In this document: positions 1 through 12,638 of the stretch, piece after piece
Layout of the letters: each line of letters begins with the position of its first letter
Position numbering within the stretch: the first letter of the stretch is position 1
NCBI GenBank assembly: GCA_049523555.1
Contig: JBEKMU010000007.1
Location: forward strand, 1-62,707
DNA from: Verrucomicrobiota bacterium
Lineage (GTDB): Bacteria; Verrucomicrobiota; Verrucomicrobiia; Limisphaerales; UBA11358
DNA: 62,707 nt
Reading direction: 5' to 3'
The notes under the pieces: model-generated
Told to the model about the DNA's origin: nothing
Database searches by the model: none
The model's input: the letters and a program-made list of their open reading frames with translations, nothing else
Made by a program: the position numbers and the translations under genes

Positions 1-164
1 CAACCGTGTTTCTGCACACGCTGGCCAAATTGGTCGTGGACATCCGGCAGACAGCTCCACCAGAACAGATTTTCCACCGGCCAGTTTTTCAACATCTGGC
101 GCACAACGACCGGCCCGCCACCGGAAGCATTGGGCGGGAATTCTGTGGCAACGAGCAACTTCAA
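1..164 (-). CDS. 5' part of probable glycosyltransferase (runs off window)
   Basis: Hand translation from TTG at 164: MKLLVATEFPPNASGGGPVVVRQMLKNWP..., a GT-B-like N-terminus; TTGA overlap with the stop of 161..958. Confidence 0.65.
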   Translation of the reverse strand, partial: MKLLVATEFPPNASGGGPVVVRQMLKNWPVENLFWWSCLPDVHDQFGQRVQKHG

Positions 165-958
165 GGGGCCGGTTTAACCTGGGTTGAAGCCGGTTTAACA
201 ACCACCAACATAATATGCTGGGCGAAAAGCGATGGCCACACCTTCTCCAGAAAACCCAGGCGCAACACGTAAGGCACTCTTTGTTTTAGCCTCATGCTGA
301 ATCCAACCAGCCTGCCAATCACCCACAAAGCGTCAAAAATCGAACACGAGGAATGAGGAATTACTTCAACCACTTCAAAACCAGCGGCTCGCATGAGCTT
401 CTTGAACTCCCGAAGGCTAAAAAATCGAATATGTGCGCCGGCAAATGGATTGTTGATATAGTCGTACGCTGAGTTTCTTACCCGCGCCCGGAATAGAGCT
501 TCCAGTCGGTCACCAAAATAGCCAAAATTAGGCACGCTGGCTACAAGACACGCCCCGGGTTTTAGAACTCGGCAAATCTCCTTTGCCGTAAACAAAGGAT
601 CAAAAAGATGCTCCAACACCTCGATGCAGGTTGCCCCATCAAAGGAATTGTCTTCGTACGGAAAGCGCTCAGAGTCGAATTTCACAACCGATGCCTTAAG
701 ACCAACCGATTGAGCCTGCTCAACTCCCCGGCTGCTGACATCCATCGCATAAAGCTCGTGAACGTTGTTGAGGAGTTGACGGTGGTAAGTAGTTGCATCA
801 CCGCACCCAACATCGATGACTTTTTCCTTGCCAGAAAATCGACCGAGTTTCCTCTCGAACTCGCCATCGGCCCAAGGCTTGATCTCGGGCGTCCAAGTAG
901 CATTGTCACCCCGATCCCAATAATGATCATAGTAGGACTGTGTTTCTGACTTGCTCAT
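161..958 (-). CDS. class I SAM-dependent methyltransferase (Methyltransf_11-like)
   Basis: IDVGCGD motif I, FPYEDNSFD, EVLEHL, LKPG, HIRFFS. Confidence 0.9.
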   Translation of the reverse strand: MSKSETQSYYDHYWDRGDNATWTPEIKPWADGEFERKLGRFSGKEKVIDVGCGDATTYHRQLLNNVHELYAMDVSSRGVEQAQSVGLKASVVKFDSERFPYEDNSFDGATCIEVLEHLFDPLFTAKEICRVLKPGACLVASVPNFGYFGDRLEALFRARVRNSAYDYINNPFAGAHIRFFSLREFKKLMRAAGFEVVEVIPHSSCSIFDALWVIGRLVGFSMRLKQRVPYVLRLGFLEKVWPSLFAQHIMLVVVKPASTQVKPAP

Positions 959-1230
959 AAAGTTAGGACTTTATTCCGGCTGCGACGACGGAAAAAGAAA
1001 AAAGCGGCAGCCATAAGGAACTGACGCAGGCCGGGATTGAGACAGGCAGACAGGCGCGGCATTTCGCCCACCCGCAATATGTTCTTGATCTGGCACAGCG
1101 GCCATTTGCAGGCAACCACCGTGAATGTACTGAGAATAAGGAAATTCGCCACCCAGCCGAACATTTTCTCGCGGCAGTGATAGACATCACGCGGAGTATT
1201 GGACAGACAGGCCTGACAGATATTATTCAT
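955..1230 (-). pseudogene. remnant of Zn-ribbon N-terminus of a class I methyltransferase
   Basis: MNNICQAC...YHCREKMFG, then a frameshift into GEFPYSQYIHGGCLQMAAVP; no SAM domain follows. Confidence 0.55.
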
Positions 1231-2063
1231 TTTTGCCCGCCGCGGTTTCGCTGTTGCCGCCAGAACTCAAGGCACATCTGGGCGTGATAGATTGCTCCGC
1301 CAATGGCAACGAGTGGGGAAATTTTTTTTTCAACTTTCCATTGGCTGCGCAGCCCGCGGAACGTCCCCATGACCAGCCTTTTTAGAGCCGTCCGGAGCGG
1401 ATGCTGCCGGATTTGCTCCCATTCCACCGGCCATTCTTCATTTTCCCAACGCCAGCAGGCAAGATCCGTGGGCCTGCCCAATAAGGAGGCGGTTATGAAT
1501 GCACGCCCGCGAGGATGTTTTGTAAGTGCATTATACAGACTATAGGCTTTTCCCTTTGGTTGGTGATGCAGCACGAGATCCAATGGTTCATATTTGCCAT
1601 CGGGAATTGGCACTTGCTCTCCCATTCCAAAAAAGCGCACGCGCTGCTTGTGAAAGAGAAAAATCCGGCCCGACGGCCACTTCTTCGAGACCATTCTCTG
1701 TCCATCCCACAACGGCCAGATGCAGGTGAACCCGGAAATTTCTTCCGGCGGCTCGGGAGCGCGGCGGAATTCCTGCAGCCAGATTTTCATCTCTTCGCTG
1801 GGAAATTCATCCGCATCCAGCCGCAGAATCCAATCGTGTTTCGCCTGTCCCCAGGCAAACGGCCAGTGCGGTTCCTGCGAAGCGGCGGGTGGCCTTTCAA
1901 AAAACTGGCCGCCGACGGCTTCAACCACCGACCGCACGTCCTGCACATCAGGAATGTCGTGCTCTACCACCAAATCGTCGTAACAATTGCGTGATTCCCG
2001 CAACAGCCGTTCCAGCAGATCGCGTTGACGATGCACACAAACAACCAGAGATATGGCGGGCAT
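1227..2063 (-). CDS. glycosyltransferase family 2
   Basis: ISLVVCVH N-terminus, AKHDWILRLDADE (DxD). Confidence 0.85.
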   Translation of the reverse strand: MPAISLVVCVHRQRDLLERLLRESRNCYDDLVVEHDIPDVQDVRSVVEAVGGQFFERPPAASQEPHWPFAWGQAKHDWILRLDADEFPSEEMKIWLQEFRRAPEPPEEISGFTCIWPLWDGQRMVSKKWPSGRIFLFHKQRVRFFGMGEQVPIPDGKYEPLDLVLHHQPKGKAYSLYNALTKHPRGRAFITASLLGRPTDLACWRWENEEWPVEWEQIRQHPLRTALKRLVMGTFRGLRSQWKVEKKISPLVAIGGAIYHAQMCLEFWRQQRNRGGQK

Positions 2064-2066
2064 AAA

Positions 2067-2139
2067 TCAGCGGTGATTTTTTCTGAATTGGTGAAGGCGC
2101 ACGCGATAATAAAAAGGGCGCAGGGCGAGTTGTTCAAGC
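2067..2139 (-). repeat. displaced copy of GT4 3' end (direct repeat with 3343..3403)
   Basis: 2079..2139 matches 3343..3403 at 59/61 bp; encodes LEQLALRPFYYRVRLHQFRKNHR*. Confidence 0.95.
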
Positions 2140-2146
2140 AAAATGG

Positions 2147-3319
2147 TCAAGCATGTCGAAAATACGAACGCAATCTGAATAAAGGACGCTCCAAACCATA
2201 ATACGATATGATTGCGACTGCAAATGTCGGAATCAGCCAATACCATGCCCAAGATGAATTTTGGACATCCTTCCATTGTTCCGTTCCCATCCATGGCCGA
2301 GACCAAAATATCTGCTGCCAAATGTAGAGCGAATAGGAAAGCACGCCAATCCAACCTACCCATTTCCAGTTCAGTATGCGATAGACGCACCAGTCAGGAT
2401 CGATTAGGCTGTGCAAGAGAAGAAGAGAAAATCCCAACGCCTGAAAGCTTTGTCCAAAGGGCAACAAAACAATCCTAGCAACCGTGGTTATAGTAAGATT
2501 TGTAAAGACATGAGGCATCACATGAGGCGCCAGATGAGGCGTCACCACCAGCAACAGTGCGGCAACAAACATCACCCCTCGCCTTTGTTTGAAAATGCTT
2601 GCAACAAGATTCTGTTTATTGGCGAGTAAAATGGCGCACAAGCAGCCGAACGCCAAGCTGTCAAAATAGCAAAAGAACGAACCAAAAGAAAACACCCTTT
2701 CTAGAAATGCGGGTTTAAGGTGAATTCCGTTCAGACCACGCAAAAGATGCTGATGACTTTTACAAAAAATATAATTACCCACCCGGAAAATTGGTGCGGT
2801 ACAAATCGGAATTGCCAGAATAATAGCCTTTACACGAATACTGCGTCTGCTCAACAAAACAAGCAGGCTGGGCCAAATCAAATAAAATTGTGCCTCAACG
2901 GAAAGCACCCATATATGTGCACTTGTGAAAGAAGCATCCATAAAATTTCTGGTAAAAGTCAACATTCCAAGCCAGCCGGCCGTTGTTTCCTTAAATTGTG
3001 TAAATAACTGGAGTCCCAACAACACAAGAACGAACATGTAATAAACTGGAAGAATACGTAAAAAACGGCGCACATAAAAATATTTAAGATTTATCCGTCT
3101 TGATTGATTCGTTTCCTGTAGCAGCAGCCATGTGATCAGGAATCCACTGATCACAAAAAAAAAGCGGACACCAAGATTGCCATCAAAAATCCAGTGAAAG
3201 AGCGGCTTTTCTGTATCAGAAACAAACCAGCCTGTATGCTCCCCCAACACCATCAAGATGCTTAATGCTCGCCAGCCATCCAAAGATGGTAATCGGGATG
3301 AAGTTGAGCAATTTCTCAT
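2147..3319 (-). CDS. acyltransferase family 3 (OafA-like O-acyltransferase)
   Basis: LDGWRALSIL, GVRFFFVISGFLI, RRFLRILP, HIWVLSVEAQFY, SYSLYIWQ, SYYGLERP. Confidence 0.93.
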   Translation of the reverse strand: MRNCSTSSRLPSLDGWRALSILMVLGEHTGWFVSDTEKPLFHWIFDGNLGVRFFFVISGFLITWLLLQETNQSRRINLKYFYVRRFLRILPVYYMFVLVLLGLQLFTQFKETTAGWLGMLTFTRNFMDASFTSAHIWVLSVEAQFYLIWPSLLVLLSRRSIRVKAIILAIPICTAPIFRVGNYIFCKSHQHLLRGLNGIHLKPAFLERVFSFGSFFCYFDSLAFGCLCAILLANKQNLVASIFKQRRGVMFVAALLLVVTPHLAPHVMPHVFTNLTITTVARIVLLPFGQSFQALGFSLLLLHSLIDPDWCVYRILNWKWVGWIGVLSYSLYIWQQIFWSRPWMGTEQWKDVQNSSWAWYWLIPTFAVAIISYYGLERPLFRLRSYFRHA

Positions 3320-4578
3320 GAATTGGAATCCATGTAAAAAGATTTTCTGAATTGACGAAGGCGCACGCGATAATAAAAAGGGCGCAGGGCGAGTTGTTCA
3401 AGCCAAGAATGGCCGAATTGGTGCGCATCCAGATAGGCGGCTGTGGCCCGCGCCCGTGCCAAATCTTCGGCGGCAAAGGGATTGTCGCGTTTTTCCACGA
3501 CCGCACGCAGAACGGCCTCCAGCCGCGCTATGGATGTGTCCGGATCCGCCAGCGTCCGGATGTGTTGCCGCGCGGCGGCCCCGAATTTCCGGCGGAGCAC
3601 GGTGTCATTGGCCAGCGTCAAAATCGCATCCGCCATCGTGGCCGGGGTGCTGGCGACAAAGCCGCATTCGCCATGCCGCACCAACTCGATCTGCGCCTGG
3701 TCGAACCACGGCACGGAATGGGTGATGACCGGCTTGCCCAAGTTCATCGGTTCGGCGATGCCGTAACCGAAACTTTCACCAATCAGGGAGGTGTGCAGTA
3801 CCCCGTCGAGCGCTGCCAAGGTCAGGCGCAGCTCTTCGGCATCGGCGGTGGCCGGCAAAATGATGAAATGCCGCGCGTCAGCGGAGGCACGCAATTTTTC
3901 AGCAATGAATGGTGGCGGCTCGCGCAGGAGCAGTTTTATTTTCCGGTTCCGCCGCAGCGCCTTTTGAAAGGCATCCAAGGCAAGGTTGGTCCATTTGTTG
4001 GGCTCCGGCCGCGAGAGCCGGCCAAAAAGAACTTCATCGTCAGCCACACCGAGTTGTTTTCGGAAGGCGGCGATTTCGGCGGCGGACGGCGGTTCCACCG
4101 GGTCCACCGGATAGACCGCCACACTGCATCGCCTGAAAAACTCCCCATCCAGCCGTCGGAATGTGCGCCGCGCCGCTTGCACGCACGCCGTCCATGAGAT
4201 GAACAGCCGGAAATCCGTCCAGGCGTCTTCACGTGGGTTTTGCCGCTTCCCGAAAATATTGGTTTGCACGACGGGAATTTTTCGGGGCAGCAGTGCCAGC
4301 GCTTCTCCAAGTATGTCTCCTTCGTGGGGATGGCCGGGTGCATGCGCATGAACAACTTCCGGCGAAATCTCCCGAAGCCTGTCGGCAATCACCCGCGCGG
4401 AGGTGCTGATAACTTGCACGGGCACATTGTGCTGTTCCAGTTCGGCGCGACGTGGCCCATCCATCAAAGTGAGCATCGTGACGTGGTGGCCGCGCTCCTT
4501 CAAACCCCACGCCCAACGGCCAGCCGCTTTTTCGGTGCCGCCCAGCCCCAGAATGTTCACAAAAGAGACGACTTTCAT
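3316..4578 (-). CDS. glycosyltransferase family 4
   Basis: MKVVSFVNILGLGGTEKAA start, ESFGYGIAEPMNLGKPVI (EX7E). Confidence 0.9.
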   Translation of the reverse strand: MKVVSFVNILGLGGTEKAAGRWAWGLKERGHHVTMLTLMDGPRRAELEQHNVPVQVISTSARVIADRLREISPEVVHAHAPGHPHEGDILGEALALLPRKIPVVQTNIFGKRQNPREDAWTDFRLFISWTACVQAARRTFRRLDGEFFRRCSVAVYPVDPVEPPSAAEIAAFRKQLGVADDEVLFGRLSRPEPNKWTNLALDAFQKALRRNRKIKLLLREPPPFIAEKLRASADARHFIILPATADAEELRLTLAALDGVLHTSLIGESFGYGIAEPMNLGKPVITHSVPWFDQAQIELVRHGECGFVASTPATMADAILTLANDTVLRRKFGAAARQHIRTLADPDTSIARLEAVLRAVVEKRDNPFAAEDLARARATAAYLDAHQFGHSWLEQLALRPFYYRVRLRQFRKSFYMDSNS

Positions 4579-4658
4579 GTTGGACAGGTGTTGTGCTGTG
4601 AGCAGCAAGCCAGACCCGGAATTTCCCGCCGGCACGGGTTCATTGCCACTGGTAAGAA

Positions 4659-5387
4659 TTATCCATACCAATCAATAATTCCCGTGCCCGTCCAGTGCCC
4701 GAATGACGTAAGATCGAGCTTTGGTTTTGTGATGCCGCGCCATATGGAGAGCATGTTCCACTGGCGAATGTCGTCAAAAAGCACAAGGGCATTCGATGGC
4801 AAGTGGATCGTGGACAAATGTTGCAGGAACGTCTGTTCAAAAACGATATTTTTGGGCGCATCAACGAACAGCAGATCGCAGCCAGATAGCGTTTCAGCAA
4901 AGTTGGCAAAGAAAGTGGCGTTGCCGAGATCCCCGATGACCTGGCGCAATTTGCCATCTTCAAAATCGGAGGAGCGCAATGCGCTGTCCTTGATCTCATT
5001 CCATGGGATAATATCAATGGTGATGAGTTCGCTGCCCGGCGGCAAGCTGCCCTTCATTGAGAGGGCGCTCAATCCTTGAAACGTGCCAATCTCGATTATT
5101 TTTTTGGGCTTTTGGGCAATGACCAGGCCGGCAAGCAATTTGTAATGTTCCCCCGGCCAAACATCCGGGTAATAAAGTGGGGCAACCATGCGTTTCGATA
5201 CCCACGACAAGTCCACGCGACGGGCTTGTTCGATGGCCTTTAAGGAAATATCCAAAAGCCGTTCGTTCGGGCGACCCGAATCGTCATCTATGGATGCGAT
5301 TGTCGAATACTCGATGTGCCGACAGTTGAACGGCAATGGCAGACTCCAGCGCAAAGCCCTGCCTTTTAATCTGGCAATCAGGTTCAT
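4659..5387 (-). CDS. class I SAM methyltransferase (Methyltransf_24/O-methyltransferase-like)
   Basis: IIEIGTFQGLS, DLLFVDAPK, VLFDDI. Confidence 0.85.
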   Translation of the reverse strand: MNLIARLKGRALRWSLPLPFNCRHIEYSTIASIDDDSGRPNERLLDISLKAIEQARRVDLSWVSKRMVAPLYYPDVWPGEHYKLLAGLVIAQKPKKIIEIGTFQGLSALSMKGSLPPGSELITIDIIPWNEIKDSALRSSDFEDGKLRQVIGDLGNATFFANFAETLSGCDLLFVDAPKNIVFEQTFLQHLSTIHLPSNALVLFDDIRQWNMLSIWRGITKPKLDLTSFGHWTGTGIIDWYG

Positions 5388-5524
5388 GCGTTCTTCTTTG
5401 GAAAGTTATCGTGATGCCTGCAATAAACAAGCGTTGAATAATAAAGCACCTGGTGAGGTGGCGATTGTGCCAAATATGATGTCGGGAAAATGCGGTTTTT
5501 ACTGAACTGAAACGCGAACAAATA

Positions 5525-5577
5525 TTTTGCGAATTTGGCGGCGCAAGATTCACGCCGCCACCAGCCCGCCATGCAAA
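5525..5577 (-). pseudogene. copy of Wzx flippase 3' end
   Basis: 5542..5576 matches 9468..9502 at 33/35 bp; LHGGLVAA*ILRR versus LHGGLVAAWILRR. Confidence 0.9.
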
Positions 5578-5813
5578 GTGGCGTGAATGACATCAGGCTG
5601 GATCTCCCGCAAAACTCCGGCGATTTTATCAGCGGAAATCCCGACCACCCGAGCTGGAACGTGATGTTGTTCCAATTCAATCCGGCGCGGCCCGTCCGCC
5701 AGCGTCAACACCGTTACCTGATTGACGCGCTCCTTCATTCCCCAAGCCCAGCGGAAGGCCGCCTTCTCGGTGCCGCCCAGCCCAAGGTTGTTCAGGAAGA
5801 TGATGATTTTCAC
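5578..5813 (-). pseudogene. truncated 5' copy of the GT4 gene
   Basis: VKIIIFLNNLGLGGTEKAAFRWAWGMKER...PDVIHA, homologous to the N-terminus of 3316..4578 and fused to the flippase fragment. Confidence 0.9.
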
Positions 5814-6054
5814 GTGGCAAGCACGCAGTTTATTCACACCAGACGTGATAGGAAAACTTTGAATCCGGCGAATCGAAATCATCGAAAAATGAAACGGCTT
5901 AGCCCGCCGCATGGCTGTCGCCCAGCCGTGCAATGGCTGGTGTCTGTTTAGCCCTCATCGGGTGGACAAGTTTATTCAGCTTTATTGTATTGCTGTAAAT
6001 ACCAAACCTCGCTTGAGATTGCCTGAGGCCAGTACCTGTTAAAGAGTGAATTTT

Positions 6055-6882
6055 CTAATAGGCCGCATTGGGTTCCAGCAAATGCGCAACCTCCGGACTG
6101 GCTGCGATATAATTAAGCCCCAGAAAATCGTCATCTTCGAAGCGATATTCCCGGAACCTTATAGATGTTGGAAGCAATTTCCCGACCTTATAGCCGCGAT
6201 CCGAAAAATAAGCGTAATAATCCCGCAATAGAAATTTGGTGACTATATTCACCATGCCATATTCAAATTGAATAACAGGCACGACCTTGGGGGTGATCAA
6301 ATTACCAAAACCATGAAGCACAAGATGCTCTGCTCCCTCCACGTCCACTTTCAGCAAATCCATCCCGGTGATGCCCCGATCAGCGCAATAATCCATGCCG
6401 CGCATGACTCGCGCTTTGATTGTTTCGTTGTTTTGGGAACATACAACCTCGAACATGGAGCTTAATTCATCCCACTCCCGGCAATATTTCACTTCAATTT
6501 CCCCCGCCGAATCTGAAAGACCAATCGCGTTTAAGACAATCTGTTGGTTTGTTGAAAACCGGGCGGAGAGTTTTTCATAAGTGGGCGGGCAAAGTTCAAA
6601 GCAGTGAATGATGGCGCGAGGGTTAACCGCCAGGACTGAAGAGGCCCAATTGCCATGATTCGCCCCGACATCAAAAACGGTTTGAAGCAGGTTGCGCCGT
6701 GCCAACGCACTCAAAAACCATCGCTCGCCATTGGAATCAAAATCGCCATTGGAATTCTCATGAATCCGATGATAGGTGACGCAAATTGAATCAAGTTTTC
6801 GCCCCACAACTGGACTTGCGTCCAAGGCAGACATGAGCCGTCTTGCGGTTCGTTTCAAAGTATTGCGAAATGGCAGCGGCAT
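6055..6882 (-). CDS. FkbM family methyltransferase
   Basis: VFDVGANHG, FE, LLKVDVEGAE, IQFEY. Confidence 0.92.
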   Translation of the reverse strand: MPLPFRNTLKRTARRLMSALDASPVVGRKLDSICVTYHRIHENSNGDFDSNGERWFLSALARRNLLQTVFDVGANHGNWASSVLAVNPRAIIHCFELCPPTYEKLSARFSTNQQIVLNAIGLSDSAGEIEVKYCREWDELSSMFEVVCSQNNETIKARVMRGMDYCADRGITGMDLLKVDVEGAEHLVLHGFGNLITPKVVPVIQFEYGMVNIVTKFLLRDYYAYFSDRGYKVGKLLPTSIRFREYRFEDDDFLGLNYIAASPEVAHLLEPNAAY

Positions 6883-6984
6883 TTAATATAGAGGTGTATT
6901 TCAGTCCGACCGAGCGATACTAAACAACAAGGCGGTAATGATGCAAATGGATTTTCCTTAATGGGTTTGTGAAATTGGAGAAAA

Positions 6985-7346
6985 ACTGGAAATCCGTCCA
7001 GTCGTCCTCCTTTGGGTTTTCCAACCGGCCAAAGACATTGGTTTGAACGACGGGAATTTTTTTCAGCGCCTCACCCAGCACGTCGCCCGTGTGCGGCTGG
7101 CCGGGAACATGGGCGTGGACGACGTTAGGCTGTAGTTCCGGTAAAATCCTGGCAATGACCCGCACGGATTTTTCCATGATTCGAACGGAAAGGTCGTGTT
7201 GTTCCAATTCGGCCCGGCGCAGACCGTCGTCCAATGTCAGCACCGTGATCTCGTGACCACGTTTCTTCAAACCACAAGCCCAGCGGCAGCCGGCCTTTTC
7301 CTTGCCCCTCAGGCAAAGACCGTTCAAAAAAAACCAGGATCCGCAC
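6985..7346 (-). pseudogene. second truncated, frameshifted 5' copy of the GT4 gene
   Basis: VRILVF (frameshift in A8 run 7326-7333) LNGLCLRGKEKAGCRWACGLKKRGH...KIPVVQTNVFGRLENPKEDDWTDF. Confidence 0.9.
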
Positions 7347-7356
7347 AAATTTACAA

Positions 7357-8460
7357 TCAGCCTAAATTGTAGGTGATTGAATCGCCCCGTTTGTTTGCCG
7401 GCGTGTAGGCGGGGCATATCCGGCAGCACTCGGGCAAATTGCCCTTGGACCAATCATCCATTTTTGCCAAAAGTGCCTGGTTGAGGTCCAAACCCGGCGT
7501 ATCGGCCGATCCCAGATAAAACCAACTTTGCTCCTGCTTGAAGGAATCGCTTATTGAACAGTAGCAACAATACCATTTCCCCGTGGGGGCGCAGGCGAGC
7601 TTGCCCAAATGGGCGCAAGGCATGGTCATCAAAGGCGTAGTGTCAAGATGGCGCGCGAGCTTGAGGTACTTGGGTTGCTGGCCGGAGATCGCCAGAATGT
7701 CGTGATAAACATCAACGTACTCGACTTCGTTGATCAGATGTTTGAACCGCCCCAGGAAGGCGACGTTTTCCGGATGTTTTTTTACCTTCCCGGAATCCAG
7801 TGCCCGATACCACAGGGCAATGAAGACATTCGATTTGAGCCGTTCCTTGGCGGCGAGCAAGGCTTGCACTCCATTGTAAACCTTGTCCCAGGCATCAATT
7901 TTGTACAACTGAAGATAATCCTCCCGGCCCCAGGCGCCGAACGAAACATTAATCCGGGAAACATTCGTGACAAGCCAAATATAGGTGTTGGGCAGTTCTT
8001 TTCTGGTTTTGCGGATGCGGGGGATCAGTTGGGGATCAATGAATGCCTCCCCGAGGTAGGGGGTAAAATCAACCAAGTCCACCTGCGCCTTTTTGGCCAA
8101 CGACAACGCCTTCTCAAAGAGGCCGTCACCCATCACCCGCCTGGGAAAATCCAAAATCGGATAGGAACAAAACGAACAACTGGCGTTGCAAATGCTGACC
8201 GTCTCAATGGTCACGGCCTTGTCAAATTTTCTTATCTCCAACTCCAGGACCCCGCAGAGACAGCGATGAATGTGTCCCAACAGATGCCGATGACGTTGAG
8301 GACACAGACCCGTCCTGAATCCAAAACCGAGGAGAAGCTTGAGGAAGTGCAACCAGTATTTTCGTATTCTCGGAAAACGAGAGAACAGGGAAAAAGCCTT
8401 TTCAAGCAGTCGCATGGCCACCGAATCTACAATTTCATCAGGAAAAGTCAAGTGTTTCAT
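7357..8460 (-). CDS. radical SAM protein with C-terminal SPASM/twitch-like Cys cluster
   Basis: CNASCSFC (CxxxCxxC), GEAF, C-terminal PCAH...CCYC...CCRIC. Confidence 0.8.
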   Translation of the reverse strand: MKHLTFPDEIVDSVAMRLLEKAFSLFSRFPRIRKYWLHFLKLLLGFGFRTGLCPQRHRHLLGHIHRCLCGVLELEIRKFDKAVTIETVSICNASCSFCSYPILDFPRRVMGDGLFEKALSLAKKAQVDLVDFTPYLGEAFIDPQLIPRIRKTRKELPNTYIWLVTNVSRINVSFGAWGREDYLQLYKIDAWDKVYNGVQALLAAKERLKSNVFIALWYRALDSGKVKKHPENVAFLGRFKHLINEVEYVDVYHDILAISGQQPKYLKLARHLDTTPLMTMPCAHLGKLACAPTGKWYCCYCSISDSFKQEQSWFYLGSADTPGLDLNQALLAKMDDWSKGNLPECCRICPAYTPANKRGDSITYNLG

Positions 8461-8519
8461 TCAATCGGCTGATGAAAGCTTCCGAATTGAATTCCAAGGT
8501 CACAATCCTTTCCCTTTCA

Positions 8520-9383
8520 TCACGCAAAACGACTATCCGGTTTTTGCACCACCACATGGCAACCATAAGGAAGGGCGCCGGGGGCAATTCCCGGCATGTT
8601 GGCGGAGGTTTGGACCATCCGCGCATTTTTCTGTTCAAAAAACCAGACCAAATCCTTCAGGCGGACGAGGTGAATGGCGTCGGCGTCAATCGAATAACCG
8701 GCGCCATGAAGCATGCCCGGCGCAAGATTCAGCCAGAAGGCACCCGGAGCACCGGCCCGGAGTCGCCTTTTCCAAAGCGGGGCGCGAATCTTCCAGTCCA
8801 TGAGATGCGAACAGGCATCGGCGAAATCCAACGTCCGCAGCTTTTCCCGGAACCGGCGGGGCGTGCGGCCAAAATAAATGCTCGGCGGAAAACCGGGGCT
8901 GTCTATGAATTCCGGACAATGAATGACAATCAATCCGCCAGGTTTGCAGTAACGCCACAGTGATTCGAGATAGGCCGGCGGGTCAACAACATGTTCCACA
9001 ACGCAAATGCTGGCAACAATGTCGAAGTCTTCCGCCATAGATGTGCCAAGCTGGAAAAAGCGCGCCTTGGGAAACCGTTGCCGGTTGTTTTGCAACAAAG
9101 CATCGCTATGATCCAGACCGGTATAAAAGCCGCCCTTTTCTTCAACATACTGGCAGAGATGCGCGGTGCCGCAGCCAACTTCCAGCACCGTCGCTCCCGA
9201 AAACACACGGCCAATCAAGTCCCAGTGGAATGGGTACTCTCCCGGATTGTATCTACCGGCAACCTGATCGGCTATCTGGTAATAGCTCGCCGGTGTGTTT
9301 TGATAGAAAGCAGTCATCGCCTGTTCCAATCCGGCAATCTGCTCCGGCGAAAGTTCGGCGCGGCGGCACAACTGGAGGCTCAT
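8520..9383 (-). CDS. class I SAM-dependent methyltransferase
   Basis: VLEVGCGTAH, VVEHVVDP, KPGG. Confidence 0.88.
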   Translation of the reverse strand: MSLQLCRRAELSPEQIAGLEQAMTAFYQNTPASYYQIADQVAGRYNPGEYPFHWDLIGRVFSGATVLEVGCGTAHLCQYVEEKGGFYTGLDHSDALLQNNRQRFPKARFFQLGTSMAEDFDIVASICVVEHVVDPPAYLESLWRYCKPGGLIVIHCPEFIDSPGFPPSIYFGRTPRRFREKLRTLDFADACSHLMDWKIRAPLWKRRLRAGAPGAFWLNLAPGMLHGAGYSIDADAIHLVRLKDLVWFFEQKNARMVQTSANMPGIAPGALPYGCHVVVQKPDSRFA

Positions 9384-10912
9384 GGCTTGGGGTCTTGCGG
9401 CATTGGGGTTGCAGCGCAGAGCTTACCGAAAATGGAATTGCCGGCAATGAATTTGCGCAACGGCCGACGCAAGATCCACGCCGCTACCAGCCCGCCATGC
9501 AAGCCGGCGGGAATCAACAGCCAGTAGGAATCGTGTTTGAAGGCCAGGTAGCTCAACGCAAACCCGGCCCCGACCAGACCTTGCGCCCCCATTTTAAGCC
9601 AGGTGTGAAAGTCCAGCCAACCCCCCGCCTTCATCAGATGCATGGCAAACAAATCCTGGGCGAGATAGGCGATCCGGCTGAACAGAAAACCGTAAGCCGC
9701 GCCAACCACCCCAGCGGCGTTCCATCCAACCCACACACCCGCGCCGGCCAGCAAACCGGCAGCAACGTTGAACCCGACCGCCGTGCCCATGCGGTTGAGG
9801 GAGGCCAGTTGCGCCCCGGAAATGTTAGCCATGGCACTGAGGCAGCACGCGACGACCAGCGGCGTGAGCAGCGGCGCGACTCGCAAAGCGGTTTGTTGCC
9901 CCAGTTCCATTCCCATGGTGTGCACCAGCCACACCCGGAGCAGCACCGGATGCCAGAGGCCGAGCCAGAGGGCGGCGAGCAGATACCAGTCGAATACAAA
10001 GGCAAAGGTTTCATTGTAAATCTTCGCCGCCGCTTCGCGCCCGCTGTCCACTACCCGCGCGGTGTTGTAAAGAACCGGCCCCATGACCGCGACACTCAGG
10101 CTTTGCAGGCGCGCGCCGATGTTGCCGGAAAAAAAGTAAGGGCTGAAATCCGCCGTCGGGGCCAGTTTGCCGAGCATCACCCGGTCAACGGAACCGAACA
10201 GCGATCCGGCAATCAACCCCAGGAAATTTTTCCCGGTGTAGGCGGCCATTTCCCGGGCGCGGGCGAAGCTGGCCGTTTGGAGATTGAAACCCAGATGATA
10301 ATTTCGCCGCGCGTGCCGGACGAAAACGCCGAGTTGCAACAGGCTGACGAGCGTGCTCCACACAATCAGCAACAGCGGATTTTGGGTGAAAAACGCCAGC
10401 GCGATGGACGGCAGGATTTGCAGCAAGGTCATCGCCACCCGCAACAAGCTGATGAATTTGAAATCCAAGTAGGCCTGTGAAAGAATCAGCCAGTAGGTGC
10501 CGTAGTAGGCAAGGAACAAGCCAAAACCGCCCGCCACAAAACACCAACGAAGCAAATTGGCATCGCCCGGCAGCACGTTGAACCATTTCGGCCCCAGCCA
10601 TGCGCCCAACCCGATGAACGCCAGCGCCACCAGCGTCAGAAATGGAATCATGATTAGATTCCCCGTGCCCCAATAACCGCGCACAGCTTCGTGGTCATTT
10701 TTCCCCAGCGCAACCCCGATGTAACGTCCCACCGCAACGCCCAGACCGAGATCGGCAAAACCAAACATTCCATTGAAGGTAACAATGTAACCCCACAGCG
10801 CGTACATGTCGTTGCCGAGATAACGAAGAAACAAGGGCATCGAAAAAAAACCGACTGCCGCGCTGACCAGCAGCGGCGTCATGTTCCACAAAGACTGTCG
10901 TTTGATACTCAT
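9380..10912 (-). CDS. wzx: Wzx-type oligosaccharide flippase (MOP/PST family)
   Basis: ~510 aa polytopic membrane protein; PLFLRYLG...FADLGLGVAVGRYI. Confidence 0.8.
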   Translation of the reverse strand: MSIKRQSLWNMTPLLVSAAVGFFSMPLFLRYLGNDMYALWGYIVTFNGMFGFADLGLGVAVGRYIGVALGKNDHEAVRGYWGTGNLIMIPFLTLVALAFIGLGAWLGPKWFNVLPGDANLLRWCFVAGGFGLFLAYYGTYWLILSQAYLDFKFISLLRVAMTLLQILPSIALAFFTQNPLLLIVWSTLVSLLQLGVFVRHARRNYHLGFNLQTASFARAREMAAYTGKNFLGLIAGSLFGSVDRVMLGKLAPTADFSPYFFSGNIGARLQSLSVAVMGPVLYNTARVVDSGREAAAKIYNETFAFVFDWYLLAALWLGLWHPVLLRVWLVHTMGMELGQQTALRVAPLLTPLVVACCLSAMANISGAQLASLNRMGTAVGFNVAAGLLAGAGVWVGWNAAGVVGAAYGFLFSRIAYLAQDLFAMHLMKAGGWLDFHTWLKMGAQGLVGAGFALSYLAFKHDSYWLLIPAGLHGGLVAAWILRRPLRKFIAGNSIFGKLCAATPMPQDPKP

Positions 10913-11051
10913 GAAAGGCGCGCGGGCGGAAGTTACCTGTTCACGACAACTTTTCCACGCCGAAAATTATCCGGTCGCAAACTCAAATGCGCTTGCAGTC
11001 TGCCGCCGCTCTGCTTTCATTCCACCGTCGCGTTTCCGACGAAGGGAAAAT

Positions 11052-12638
11052 ATGCATTGTGTCATCGGTTCCGGTCCGGCGGGCGTCGCCTGCGCCAAGG
11101 CGCTGCTGGCGCGCGGCGCAAGCGTACTGATGCTCGACGCCGGCCTCGTACTGGAGGCCGACCACGCCCAAATCGTCCGTCAATTTGCCGGCACGAAACC
11201 TTCCACCTGGCAAATGGGCGACCGCGCCAGCCTGAAAGGCGACATGGCTGCCAGCGCCAAAGGCATTCCACTCAAGCTGGCTTTCGGTTCGGACTTTCCC
11301 TACCGCGAAACGGAAACGCACATCCCTTGGCGTGGCCAGGGCACCAGCGTGCGACCGTCGTTGGCGCTCGGCGGCCTCAGCAATGTCTGGGGCGCGACCC
11401 TGTTGCCGTATCGCGACGCGGACATCGCCGACTGGCCCATCAAAAGCGCGCAATTGGAAAGACATTACCGCGCCGTGCTTGAACTCACCGGGCTGGCCGC
11501 CCAGCGTGACGACCTCGAAGAGTGGTTTCCGCTGCATTGCGACAACCCGCGCATGCTTGAGCCCAGCCAACAGGCCGGTTTACTGCTCCACAATCTTTCC
11601 CGCCATCGCGACGTCCTGCGCGAACGCGGCTGGCGATTCGGCCGCGCGCGGCTGGCCGTGCGCGCCGCCGACAACCCCCGGGGCATTGGGTGCCTCTATT
11701 GCGGTTTTTGCATGTATGGCTGCCCTTACGGCTGCATTTTCAACAGCGCCGACACCGTGTGCGAACTGCGCGCGGAGAAAGGCTTCACATATCACCGTGA
11801 TGTCATTGTCGCCTTGTTGCGTGAACATTCCGACAAAGTCATCGTCGAAGGTTATCACCGCCAAACGCGCGCCCCGCTTTCATTTGAAGCGAACCGGGCG
11901 TATCTGGCAGCGGGCGTCATTCCGACCGCGCAAATTCTTTTGCGCTCCCAATCCGCCTACGACCACCCGTTGCGCCTGCGCGACAGCCAGTATTTCCTTT
12001 TCCCGCTCGTGCTGGCGCGCCGGTCACGGGACGTCCAAACCGAATTGCTGTACACCCTCAGCCAGGTTTTCATCGAACTTTGCCGTCCGCAAATCAGCCG
12101 CCATACCGTCCATCTGCAAATTTACACCTACAGCGATTTGATCGGGGAGGCCGTGCGGAAAACTTTCGGACCGCTCGCGCGTCCGCTGGAAGGCCTGGCG
12201 CGGCAACTCGAAGGACGCATGGTGATTGTGCAAGGCTACCTGCACTCGGACGAGTCGCGGACCATTGAAATGACGTTGAAACGCGACGGCGCGAGGGACT
12301 GTCTGCACTTGAACGCGCTGCCCAATCCCGACACCCGGCGCACGGTCAAACGTGTTGTGCGTGAAATGCTCCGGCAATCGCGCCGGCTCGGCGGCATCGT
12401 TTTGCCGCCGATGTTGCATATGGGCCGGCCCGGCCGCGGCTTTCACTGCGGCGGCTCGTTTCCGATGCGCGAAAATCCGCAACCGTTCGAGAGCGATTGT
12501 CTCGGACGACCGCATGGCTGGACGCGCGTTCACGCGGTGGACGCGACGGTGTTTCCGAGCGTGCCGGCAACAGCGATCACTTTTTCCGTCATGGCCAACG
12601 CCCATCGCATCGGCTGGGAAACCGCCGCGTGGGATTGA
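11052..12638 (+). CDS. GMC family FAD oxidoreductase
   Basis: VIGSGPAG FAD motif, GGLSNVWGA, CLYCGFCMYGCP, FHCGGSFPM, VDATVFP. Confidence 0.85.
   Translation: MHCVIGSGPAGVACAKALLARGASVLMLDAGLVLEADHAQIVRQFAGTKPSTWQMGDRASLKGDMAASAKGIPLKLAFGSDFPYRETETHIPWRGQGTSVRPSLALGGLSNVWGATLLPYRDADIADWPIKSAQLERHYRAVLELTGLAAQRDDLEEWFPLHCDNPRMLEPSQQAGLLLHNLSRHRDVLRERGWRFGRARLAVRAADNPRGIGCLYCGFCMYGCPYGCIFNSADTVCELRAEKGFTYHRDVIVALLREHSDKVIVEGYHRQTRAPLSFEANRAYLAAGVIPTAQILLRSQSAYDHPLRLRDSQYFLFPLVLARRSRDVQTELLYTLSQVFIELCRPQISRHTVHLQIYTYSDLIGEAVRKTFGPLARPLEGLARQLEGRMVIVQGYLHSDESRTIEMTLKRDGARDCLHLNALPNPDTRRTVKRVVREMLRQSRRLGGIVLPPMLHMGRPGRGFHCGGSFPMRENPQPFESDCLGRPHGWTRVHAVDATVFPSVPATAITFSVMANAHRIGWETAAWD

Follow-up and report, generated by a model that had tools for sequence, protein, structure and literature searches.

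The window analysed here is the whole of contig C7 (62,707 nt; GenBank JBEKMU010000007.1) of the metagenome-assembled, 92% complete genome GCA_049523555.1 (G000), which belongs to an uncultured Verrucomicrobiota bacterium from peat. Within it, an acyltransferase gene in a surface-glycan operon lies between two copies of a short direct repeat, which we read as the probable scar of a recent gene gain. Every gene in window positions 1-11000 is on the minus strand, and upstream and downstream are used in the sense of transcription. The present order is a GT4-family glycosyltransferase gene (GT4) with a new tail, the acyltransferase gene, 0-4 nt, the last 64-76 nt of GT4, the letters TTT, and a GT2-like glycosyltransferase gene. 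The features of this region are as follows.

3316..4578, minus strand: intact GT4-family glycosyltransferase gene; 420 amino acids from the ATG at 4578; Glycos_transf_1, Glyco_trans_1_4
3343..3406, minus strand: upstream repeat copy, inside intact GT4; codons for WLEQLALRPFYYRVRLRQFRK
3316..3342, minus strand: AT-rich new GT4 tail, as read from the sequence; last 8 codons SFYMDSNS
2147..3319, minus strand: complete AT3-only acyltransferase gene, the putative insert; 390 amino acids; PF01757; stop codon at 2149-2147
2143..2146, minus strand: four bases (CCAT) that separate the acyltransferase stop from the point where the remnant begins in an ungapped alignment
2079..2142, minus strand: downstream repeat copy; non-coding leftover of the GT4 3' end, with the His codon of the family consensus
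2064..2078, minus strand: remnant tail and spacer of ancestral type (NHR, TGA, TTT); 'TGATTTATGCCCGCCAT' is identical at the direct junction of the relative G062
1227..2063, minus strand: GT2-like (GT-A-like) gene; 278 amino acids; orthologs in relatives; GmaR profile match

The repeat pair (2079-2142 and 3343-3406, minus strand) was recovered by a repeat search of the window as 64 nt with 95% identity and a spacing of 1264 nt. The initial annotation had described it as 59 identical positions in a 61-bp span, a count that was confirmed by script and that extends to 61/64 over the full 64 nt. Mismatches fall at 2091/3355, 2092/3356 and 2140/3404, leaving a perfect core of 47 nt (2093-2139 = 3357-3403) and a second perfect stretch of 12 nt. 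When the window was shuffled 20 times by mononucleotide, the longest exact direct repeat reached 14-19 nt, compared with the 47 observed, and exact 47-nt pairs are expected by chance at about 1e-19. Searches with blastn confined the repeat to these two places, with no further copy anywhere in the 3.13-Mb, 192-contig assembly. By tblastn, the downstream remnant matches GT4 residues 393-413 at 90.5%. The suggestion that the repeat region is a specially conserved recombination site was rejected, its identity to nine orthologs being only 0.74-0.75; for GT4 itself, identity to nine orthologs has a mean of about 0.68 (read from the table) and a maximum of 0.83 outside the repeat region.

The intact GT4 gene has matches to Glycos_transf_1 (E 7.7e-12) and Glyco_trans_1_4 (E 1.6e-11), and its orthologs in relatives share 65-77% amino acid identity. 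Its stop codon (TGA, 3318-3316) overlaps the ATG of the acyltransferase gene (3319-3317) as ATGA, so that the new tail and overlapping stop reported earlier for the upstream copy are indeed seen in the sequence, and the arrangement suggests that GT4 is probably translationally coupled to the acyltransferase. The GT4 reading frame stays open, and the changed tail lies in a region that is tolerant of change. The tail SFYMDSNS is present in none of the 119 GT4 homologs listed (best 81-82% amino acid identity), the end of P0122 (FRKRFFMGHG) having only a vague likeness to it. The C-terminal tails after FRK differ in nearly all of these 119 homologs, which blurs the edge of the insert on the GT4 side. 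The gene had been called exactly bracketed by the repeat; the bracketing stands, and the exactness is lost in these variable tails. At the other edge, alignment with a 2-nt gap and the sequences of relatives indicate that CCATT at the distal joint also matches GT4 (GGCCATT), and it is possible that these letters represent a microhomology at an illegitimate joint.

Downstream of the remnant stop codon (TGA, 2069-2067) come TTT and the ATG of the GT2-like gene at 2063, and this gene retains its native 76 nt of upstream sequence. Its earlier labelling as GT2 is weakly founded, since no Pfam family matches at E<=0.01 and PF13704 appears only at E 0.15; in support of the label, GmaR, a protein of the GT2 type, is matched at E 5e-6 by a profile built from 12 orthologs.

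The acyltransferase matches PF01757 (Acyl_transf_3) with 65.4 bits (cut-off 31; E 6.1e-18), its residues 11-373 covering positions 2-322 of the 326 in the profile. The motifs R17-X10-H28, FFVISG (54-59) and R85-F-L-R88 are present, with H28, G59, R85 and R88 invariant in an alignment of eight sequences; the available part of PMC7448272 gives R/K-X10-H in the first helix, FFXISG and RXXR as motifs of the AT3 family. These three motifs, a single AT3 domain of about 330-390 amino acids and the lack of an SGNH domain are shared with Oac of the Shigella phage Sf6, from which the present protein differs in its low identity and in having no phage context. Both termini agree with homologs at 53-81% identity. 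A public protein collection contains the product as a 378-amino-acid entry (P0001) with a start 12 codons downstream (window 3284-3319). The ATG at 3319 appears to be the likelier start because homologs conserve the first 12 residues. From its family and its place in a glycan locus, the enzyme presumably O-acylates the glycan.

The composition of the gene differs from that of its surroundings, with a G + C content of 0.431 compared with 0.567 for the genome, and a third-position G + C content (GC3) of 0.440 compared with 0.667 in GT4 and 0.595 in the GT2-like gene. Homologs elsewhere in the genus range in GC3 from 0.43 to 0.82; low G + C content is therefore no trait of the family, and the gene looks compositionally foreign and imported. 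The insert consists of little more than this single open reading frame (ORF), with 23 nt before it and 0-4 nt behind. Homologs at E<=1e-15 occur in 54 of 163 genus genomes (a count that takes in the unpublished G073), the best being 54% identical, and none of them in the 163 genomes lies at a GT4 3' end. The nearest sequences in a large protein collection, P0002 and P0003, are 79-81% identical, P0003 being found on contigs of up to 285 kb. With P0003 as query, and G000 itself set aside, the 163 genus/family genomes gave nothing above 57%; the sole match at E<=1e-110 beside G000 is G158, with 57% identity, and no match at that threshold was found in 400 other genomes sampled from the order. Viral contigs contain AT3 relatives (82 among 125 candidate stretches) but no close relative of this gene, the maximum identity being 41% within a segment and about 32% when the whole length is compared. 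A scan of genome contigs for a donor with the acyltransferase alignment was discarded, the patterns being too general: the best 80 loci had 25-45% identity on the best segment.

Distant AT3 genes (26-41%) are located downstream of the GT2-like gene in G056 (L142 2287-3348) and G062 (L141 823-1770), and likewise in G060 (L148 8264-8533) and G158 (L144 7174-7443). Acylation genes thus recur in the locus, at other positions.

The GT4/GT2-like junction in relatives

Orthologs of the GT2-like gene were identified in 20 of the 151 genomes sampled from the genus, one of them being G000. One genome per species was searched, and up to 12 kb upstream was compared for 18 of the 19 others, G129 being a fragment at a contig end. 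Within the fetched stretch, GT4 lies upstream of the GT2-like gene in eight genomes and ten show no GT4 there. The two genes directly abut in four of the eight (G062, G056, G158 and, on contig C27, G134). An FkbM-type methyltransferase gene lies between them in G001, G042 and G087 (divergent), and in G141 together with one more gene. None of the eight relatives with both genes has an acyltransferase gene between them. Two further loci of G134 have about 3.2-3.4 kb between GT4 and the GT2-like gene, so that this genome holds three versions of the locus (L139, L149 and L150, on contigs C27, C25 and C39); two of the versions match GT4 or the GT2-like gene in pieces, in a frameshift-like manner for which strain mixture, paralogy or decay could be the explanation.

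The junction in G062, '...TGA TTT ATG CCC GCC AT', is identical over 17 letters to window positions 2069-2053. A G062-like metagenome contig, L035, is colinear with window 4551-3343 and then 2142-1335, its positions 1194-1257 matching both repeat copies. The remnant with its stop, spacer and ATG is thus a GT4/GT2-like junction of ancestral type. The proposal that the downstream copy marks the ancestral operon junction is supported by these matches and by the direct abutment in relatives, and the synteny comparison suggested as a check on it gives the same picture, with GT4 next to the GT2-like gene and no acyltransferase in four of eight genomes. Metagenomes scanned with a degenerate pattern for the 3' end of GT4 yielded two loci only, L035 and the G001-like L036, and no strain of the same species.

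The two copies are more similar to one another than to any sampled relative. They differ at 3/64 positions, and each differs from G141, G001 and G062 at 7-12/64 (52-57/64 identical); the event was therefore recent, as the high identity had initially been taken to suggest. Between the copies there are no synonymous and two non-synonymous codon differences, TGG/TTG (W/L) and CGT/CAC (R/H), compared with 4-9 synonymous codon differences to other species. The His of the remnant is the family consensus, and the Arg of the intact copy occurs in no other of the 120 proteins listed, a number that counts the query. As judged by these differences, the duplication is younger than the split from any sampled species, and its two copies stem from one genome or from nearly identical strains.

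The arrangement was also compared with Logan contigs (k=31) from four peat or wetland runs, X1-X4. Three contigs of X1, possibly the source sample, cover window 2-2122 (depth 8.2), 2110-3386 (10.2) and 3374-7962 (11.2), each with copy-specific letters, and the 47-nt core is a separate piece at a depth of 16.6, about double that of its neighbours. Contigs of X3 cover 1962-2122 and 3228-3386, and a 151-nt contig of X4 spans 3292-3442, that is, the start of the acyltransferase gene, the repeat and GT4. The form with the insert is present at >=99% identity in all four runs. The repeat is not a duplication made by the assembler, an artefact that had been named as a possible refutation: both copies, with their distinguishing letters, are recovered in independent X1 contigs, with the core at about twice the depth. 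The linkage from the GT2-like side through the repeat to the 3' end of the acyltransferase gene is seen in the assembled contig only, as k=31 cannot bridge the 47-nt core.

It is barely credible that the locus is an assembly artefact of another kind, a chimera of two co-occurring strains joined through the 47-nt core. Such an error is invited by the nature of the window, which is one contig of a 192-contig metagenome bin, by the break of the k=31 contigs at the core, and by strain heterogeneity in the locus at a branch point at 7962. The core is, however, shorter than a normal read, and both junctions between insert and repeat are found in independent contigs that each show the letters of their own copy (X1 records 1, 3 and 4; X3 records 16 and 17; X4 record 23). 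In addition, the X1 depths of 8.2, 10.2 and 11.2, with 16.6 in the core, fit one molecule with two copies and not two molecules that share the GT4 side. The branch point itself lies inside a radical-SAM gene, where X1, X2 and X3 contigs coming from the 9500 side diverge into the same unknown letters. Their continuation beyond 7962 was found neither in the assembly nor in any fetched locus, and a co-occurring structural variant of the locus at this position is likely.

Origin of the repeat pair

Several types of machinery might leave direct repeats around a gene, and each was looked for. A Pfam scan of 54 selected window ORFs of >=110 amino acids (11 at E<=0.01, 43 at E<=1e-5) contained no integrase, transposase, recombinase or phage family at those thresholds. 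The repeat folds no better than shuffled sequences (z 0.13-0.54), which gives no hairpin, and no Rfam family is present in window 1-12000. There is no tRNA gene in the locus, the only two of the window being at 34.6 and 62.2 kb, and no excess of promoter- or terminator-like sites. The insert ends have no terminal inverted repeats, the only inverted pair lying inside the gene (2751-2775 / 2940-2964). The repeat pair is therefore read as a by-product of insertion: it is probably a young scar, and not a device. An integron gene cassette was rejected, with no attC-like hairpin at the locus and no integron integrase among the 54 ORFs. A transposable element with target-site duplication was likewise rejected, with neither terminal inverted repeats nor a transposase among the ORFs scanned; the usual target-site duplications of transposons are far shorter than 64 nt.

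The best reading of the sequence is that the scar marks the horizontal gain of a single AT3 membrane O-acyltransferase gene in the hypervariable surface-glycan operon of a peat bacterium. The gene would have entered by one crossover anchored in GT4 homology, with a second, illegitimate joint of the microhomology type right after its stop codon. The route would be homology-facilitated illegitimate recombination (HFIR) or the single-crossover integration of a circularised fragment, and under either the second repeat copy would be what is left of the resident GT4 tail, together with the sequence natively upstream of the GT2-like gene. Scars of HFIR have been described, in the parts available of PMC5361080, as orphan immunity genes in type VI secretion system clusters of Vibrio cholerae and as orphan 3' ends in Rhs and contact-dependent inhibition (CDI) loci, and the accessible text of PMC3240628 also gives the definition of HFIR. 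As far as these descriptions extend, the likeness would lie in a conserved upstream gene that serves as anchor, in the illegitimate other end and in displaced resident pieces downstream of the newcomer. Here the GT4-side border is in GT4 sequence, and the distal joint lies 0-4 nt past the stop codon, with the possible 5-nt CCATT. In the HFIR cases toxin/immunity modules were displaced, whereas in this locus a glycan-modifying gene was gained and a short, non-coding piece of a gene tail remained. The locus is a known sort of insertion scar, and it reveals no new kind of mobile element or switch.

Within the scar reading, the homology-anchored route itself is held tentatively, at not quite an even chance, and several observations count against it. 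No donor arrangement of GT4 and acyltransferase was found among 119 GT4 homologs or in 163 genus/family and 400 order genomes. Plain HFIR would make the upstream copy donor DNA, yet the copies show no synonymous differences, which would require a donor of nearly the same strain; a near-identical donor pushes the first capture back without explaining it, and duplication in situ explains the identity more simply. The distal joint, 0-4 nt from a natural stop codon, is unexpectedly tight for a random illegitimate joint, and all three differing letters change amino acids, which no model predicts. ComEC and DprA are present, but they also occur in 10-11 of 14 control genomes and are uninformative on natural competence.

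The main competing explanation is insertion in situ with duplication of the target, which we consider rather unlikely. A foreign fragment of about 1.2 kb without GT4 homology would have been joined to the GT4 3' end at two microhomologies separated by 64-71 nt; single-stranded DNA annealing at a replication fork, template switching or staggered-break fill-in could bring this about, and both copies would then be resident. The perfect stretches of 47 and 12 nt, with no synonymous differences where other species have 4-9, speak for it, as do the lack of any GT4-acyltransferase adjacency in the genomes and homologs searched, an insert that is nearly one ORF, and the imperfect similarity CCATT..TT at the distal joint. 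A further point in its favour is the integration of ectopic single strands at microhomologies during replication in Acinetobacter baylyi, as reported in the part available of 10.1101/2023.11.22.568220. Ku was not found in the 92%-complete assembly, however, arguing against capture by end joining, and the scars in G042 and beside the O-methyltransferase gene of G000 need recombination between locus variants, so that a second mechanism would be required for this scar. The in-situ route also calls for a process that is without documented parallel for kilobase inserts in the literature searched; no bacterial process known to us routinely produces target duplications of 60-70 bp on either side of inserts of kilobase size. 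Site-specific integration, with the 64-bp copies as attL and attR of a tiny element or of a prophage serotype-conversion remnant in the GT4 3' end and the recombinase elsewhere, is extremely improbable. Direct repeats and a 3' end replaced by an element-borne tail do resemble the result of integration at the 3' end of a gene, AT3 genes are found on viral contigs, in many cases close to a contig end, and phage Sf6 carries the O-acetylase gene oac next to attP. Against this, the 1.2-kb insert has room for the ORF only, none of the 54 selected window ORFs matched an integrase or phage family at the cut-offs applied, the repeat has no other copy in the assembly and shows neither an inverted-repeat structure nor a nearby tRNA gene, the viral relatives are as distant as described above, and the scars of relatives lie at differing positions in GT4 or the GT2-like gene. 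It is also very improbable that the GT4/GT2-like junction is a dedicated cassette-capture site, at which an as yet unknown process inserts single promoterless modification genes (the acyltransferase and the FkbM- and TylF-type methyltransferases) and duplicates the adjoining gene end. If it were, fresh repeats would allow excision as small circles, and populations could shuffle and shed glycan-modifying genes in an integron-like manner, without integrase or attC.

Possible loop-out of the inserted gene

The direct repeats provide an opportunity for the gene to be lost again. A simulated exchange in the core deletes 1264 bp and yields a GT4 protein of 415 amino acids that ends in RVRLHQFRKNHR, 3 nt before the ATG of the GT2-like gene. 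This is an exact junction of the ancestral type, in agreement with the initial annotation, where a clean deletion of 1264 bp restoring GT4-GT2 had been foreseen. Rare, irreversible loop-out of this segment is possible, as a by-product of the scar rather than as a selected switch. The predicted polymorphism, with the 1264 bp present or absent, could be tracked in peat metagenomes. No joint, deleted allele or 1.26-kb circle appeared in the contigs of the four runs; the deleted allele has no private 31-mer, so contigs with k=31 are blind to the deletion. By a rough estimate from the X1 insert depth, which lies between those of the flanks, a deleted allele in more than about a fifth of cells is unlikely.

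The further claim of a one-way off switch describes a mere potential of any direct repeat, and nothing shows selection for it. A functional, selected switch, with loop-out at a useful rate and a population hedging between acylated and non-acylated glycan, is improbable. The deletion product is perfect, and so is the core over its 47 nt, which exceeds the minimal length for RecA-dependent exchange in E. coli. Instability has also been reported for a comparable gene, lag-1 of Legionella pneumophila serogroup 1, an O-acetyltransferase gene beside a partial duplication of ORF 2; in the available part of PMC3766260 its loop-out is assumed, and an in-vitro loss of 1e-6 to 1e-7 is quoted as unpublished. 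Weighing against a switch are the X1 insert depth of 10.2 between flanks of 8.2 and 11.2, the form with the insert in all four runs, and the persistence of older, decayed remnants in G141, G042 and G113, which suggests that such scars are not quickly resolved; in addition, the loop-out property is common to every insertion scar with a duplication. As far as the lag-1 account goes, the two loci are alike in having an AT3-type gene in the variable part of a glycan locus, next to a partial duplicate of a neighbouring gene. They differ in that lag-1 has an adjacent transposase and a loss observed both in strains and in vitro, whereas the present locus, in an uncultured peat bacterium, lacks a transposase and has a duplicate of just 64-76 nt.

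Other scars in the locus and genus

The relevance of the locus lies in its being a clean, datable snapshot of the surface-glycan operon of an uncultured soil or peat lineage as it gains a modifying gene. The junction before the event (in relatives) and the state after it are both visible, with four more scars of the same type in one genus, and the locus provides a natural archive in which gene gain by illegitimate and homology-anchored routes can be measured beyond the model organisms. Further gene pieces within the window locus are listed below.

5568..5813, minus strand: GT4 5' fragment; residues 1-82, 63% amino acid identity to the intact gene
5526..5588, minus strand: copy of a flippase 3' end; 63 nt, between the GT4 fragment and an O-methyltransferase gene
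6968..7330, minus strand: GT4 5' fragment; residues 6-130, 61% amino acid identity; upstream of an FkbM methyltransferase gene

The flippase copy shares 87% identity over 38 nt with window 9477-9514 and 86% over 63 nt with the 3' end of the G141 flippase gene; in G060 the orthologous O-methyltransferase gene is immediately preceded by a flippase 3' end. In G042 (L133 3601-4000), the GT4 stop codon is followed by 7 nt, by the initial ~28 nt of a GT2-like gene (identical at 24/28), by a frameshifted GT4 3' remnant of about 170 nt that starts PFAAED, by an FkbM gene and then by the real GT2-like gene. The G042 scar and the flippase fragment of the window hold pieces of another arrangement and therefore record recombination between locus variants, with one joint illegitimate. 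The closest relative, G141 (82% nucleotide identity over flippase and methyltransferase, 76% over GT4), has GT4, an FkbM gene, a decayed GT4 3' remnant (GQSLLEHTALRPLYYQACF), about 1.1 kb and the GT2-like gene (L134 10819-10920). In G113 (L132 11095-11178), a 5' remnant of the GT2-like gene (MPTISLVVCVSMQCDL) and a TylF-type methyltransferase gene precede the intact GT2-like gene. A supposed GT2-like fragment in G130 (E 0.039) was rejected, since it forms the beginning of another, genuine GT2 gene.

Compared with G001 and G141, the window locus also has an extra radical-SAM gene (7357-8460). Elsewhere in the window, an ORF at 20561-20914 matches the FkbM methyltransferase profile in its C-terminal half only, and a 179-amino-acid ORF at 32172-32711 matches class-I methyltransferase profiles in its C-terminal part only; these two may be further gene fragments in other glycan regions.

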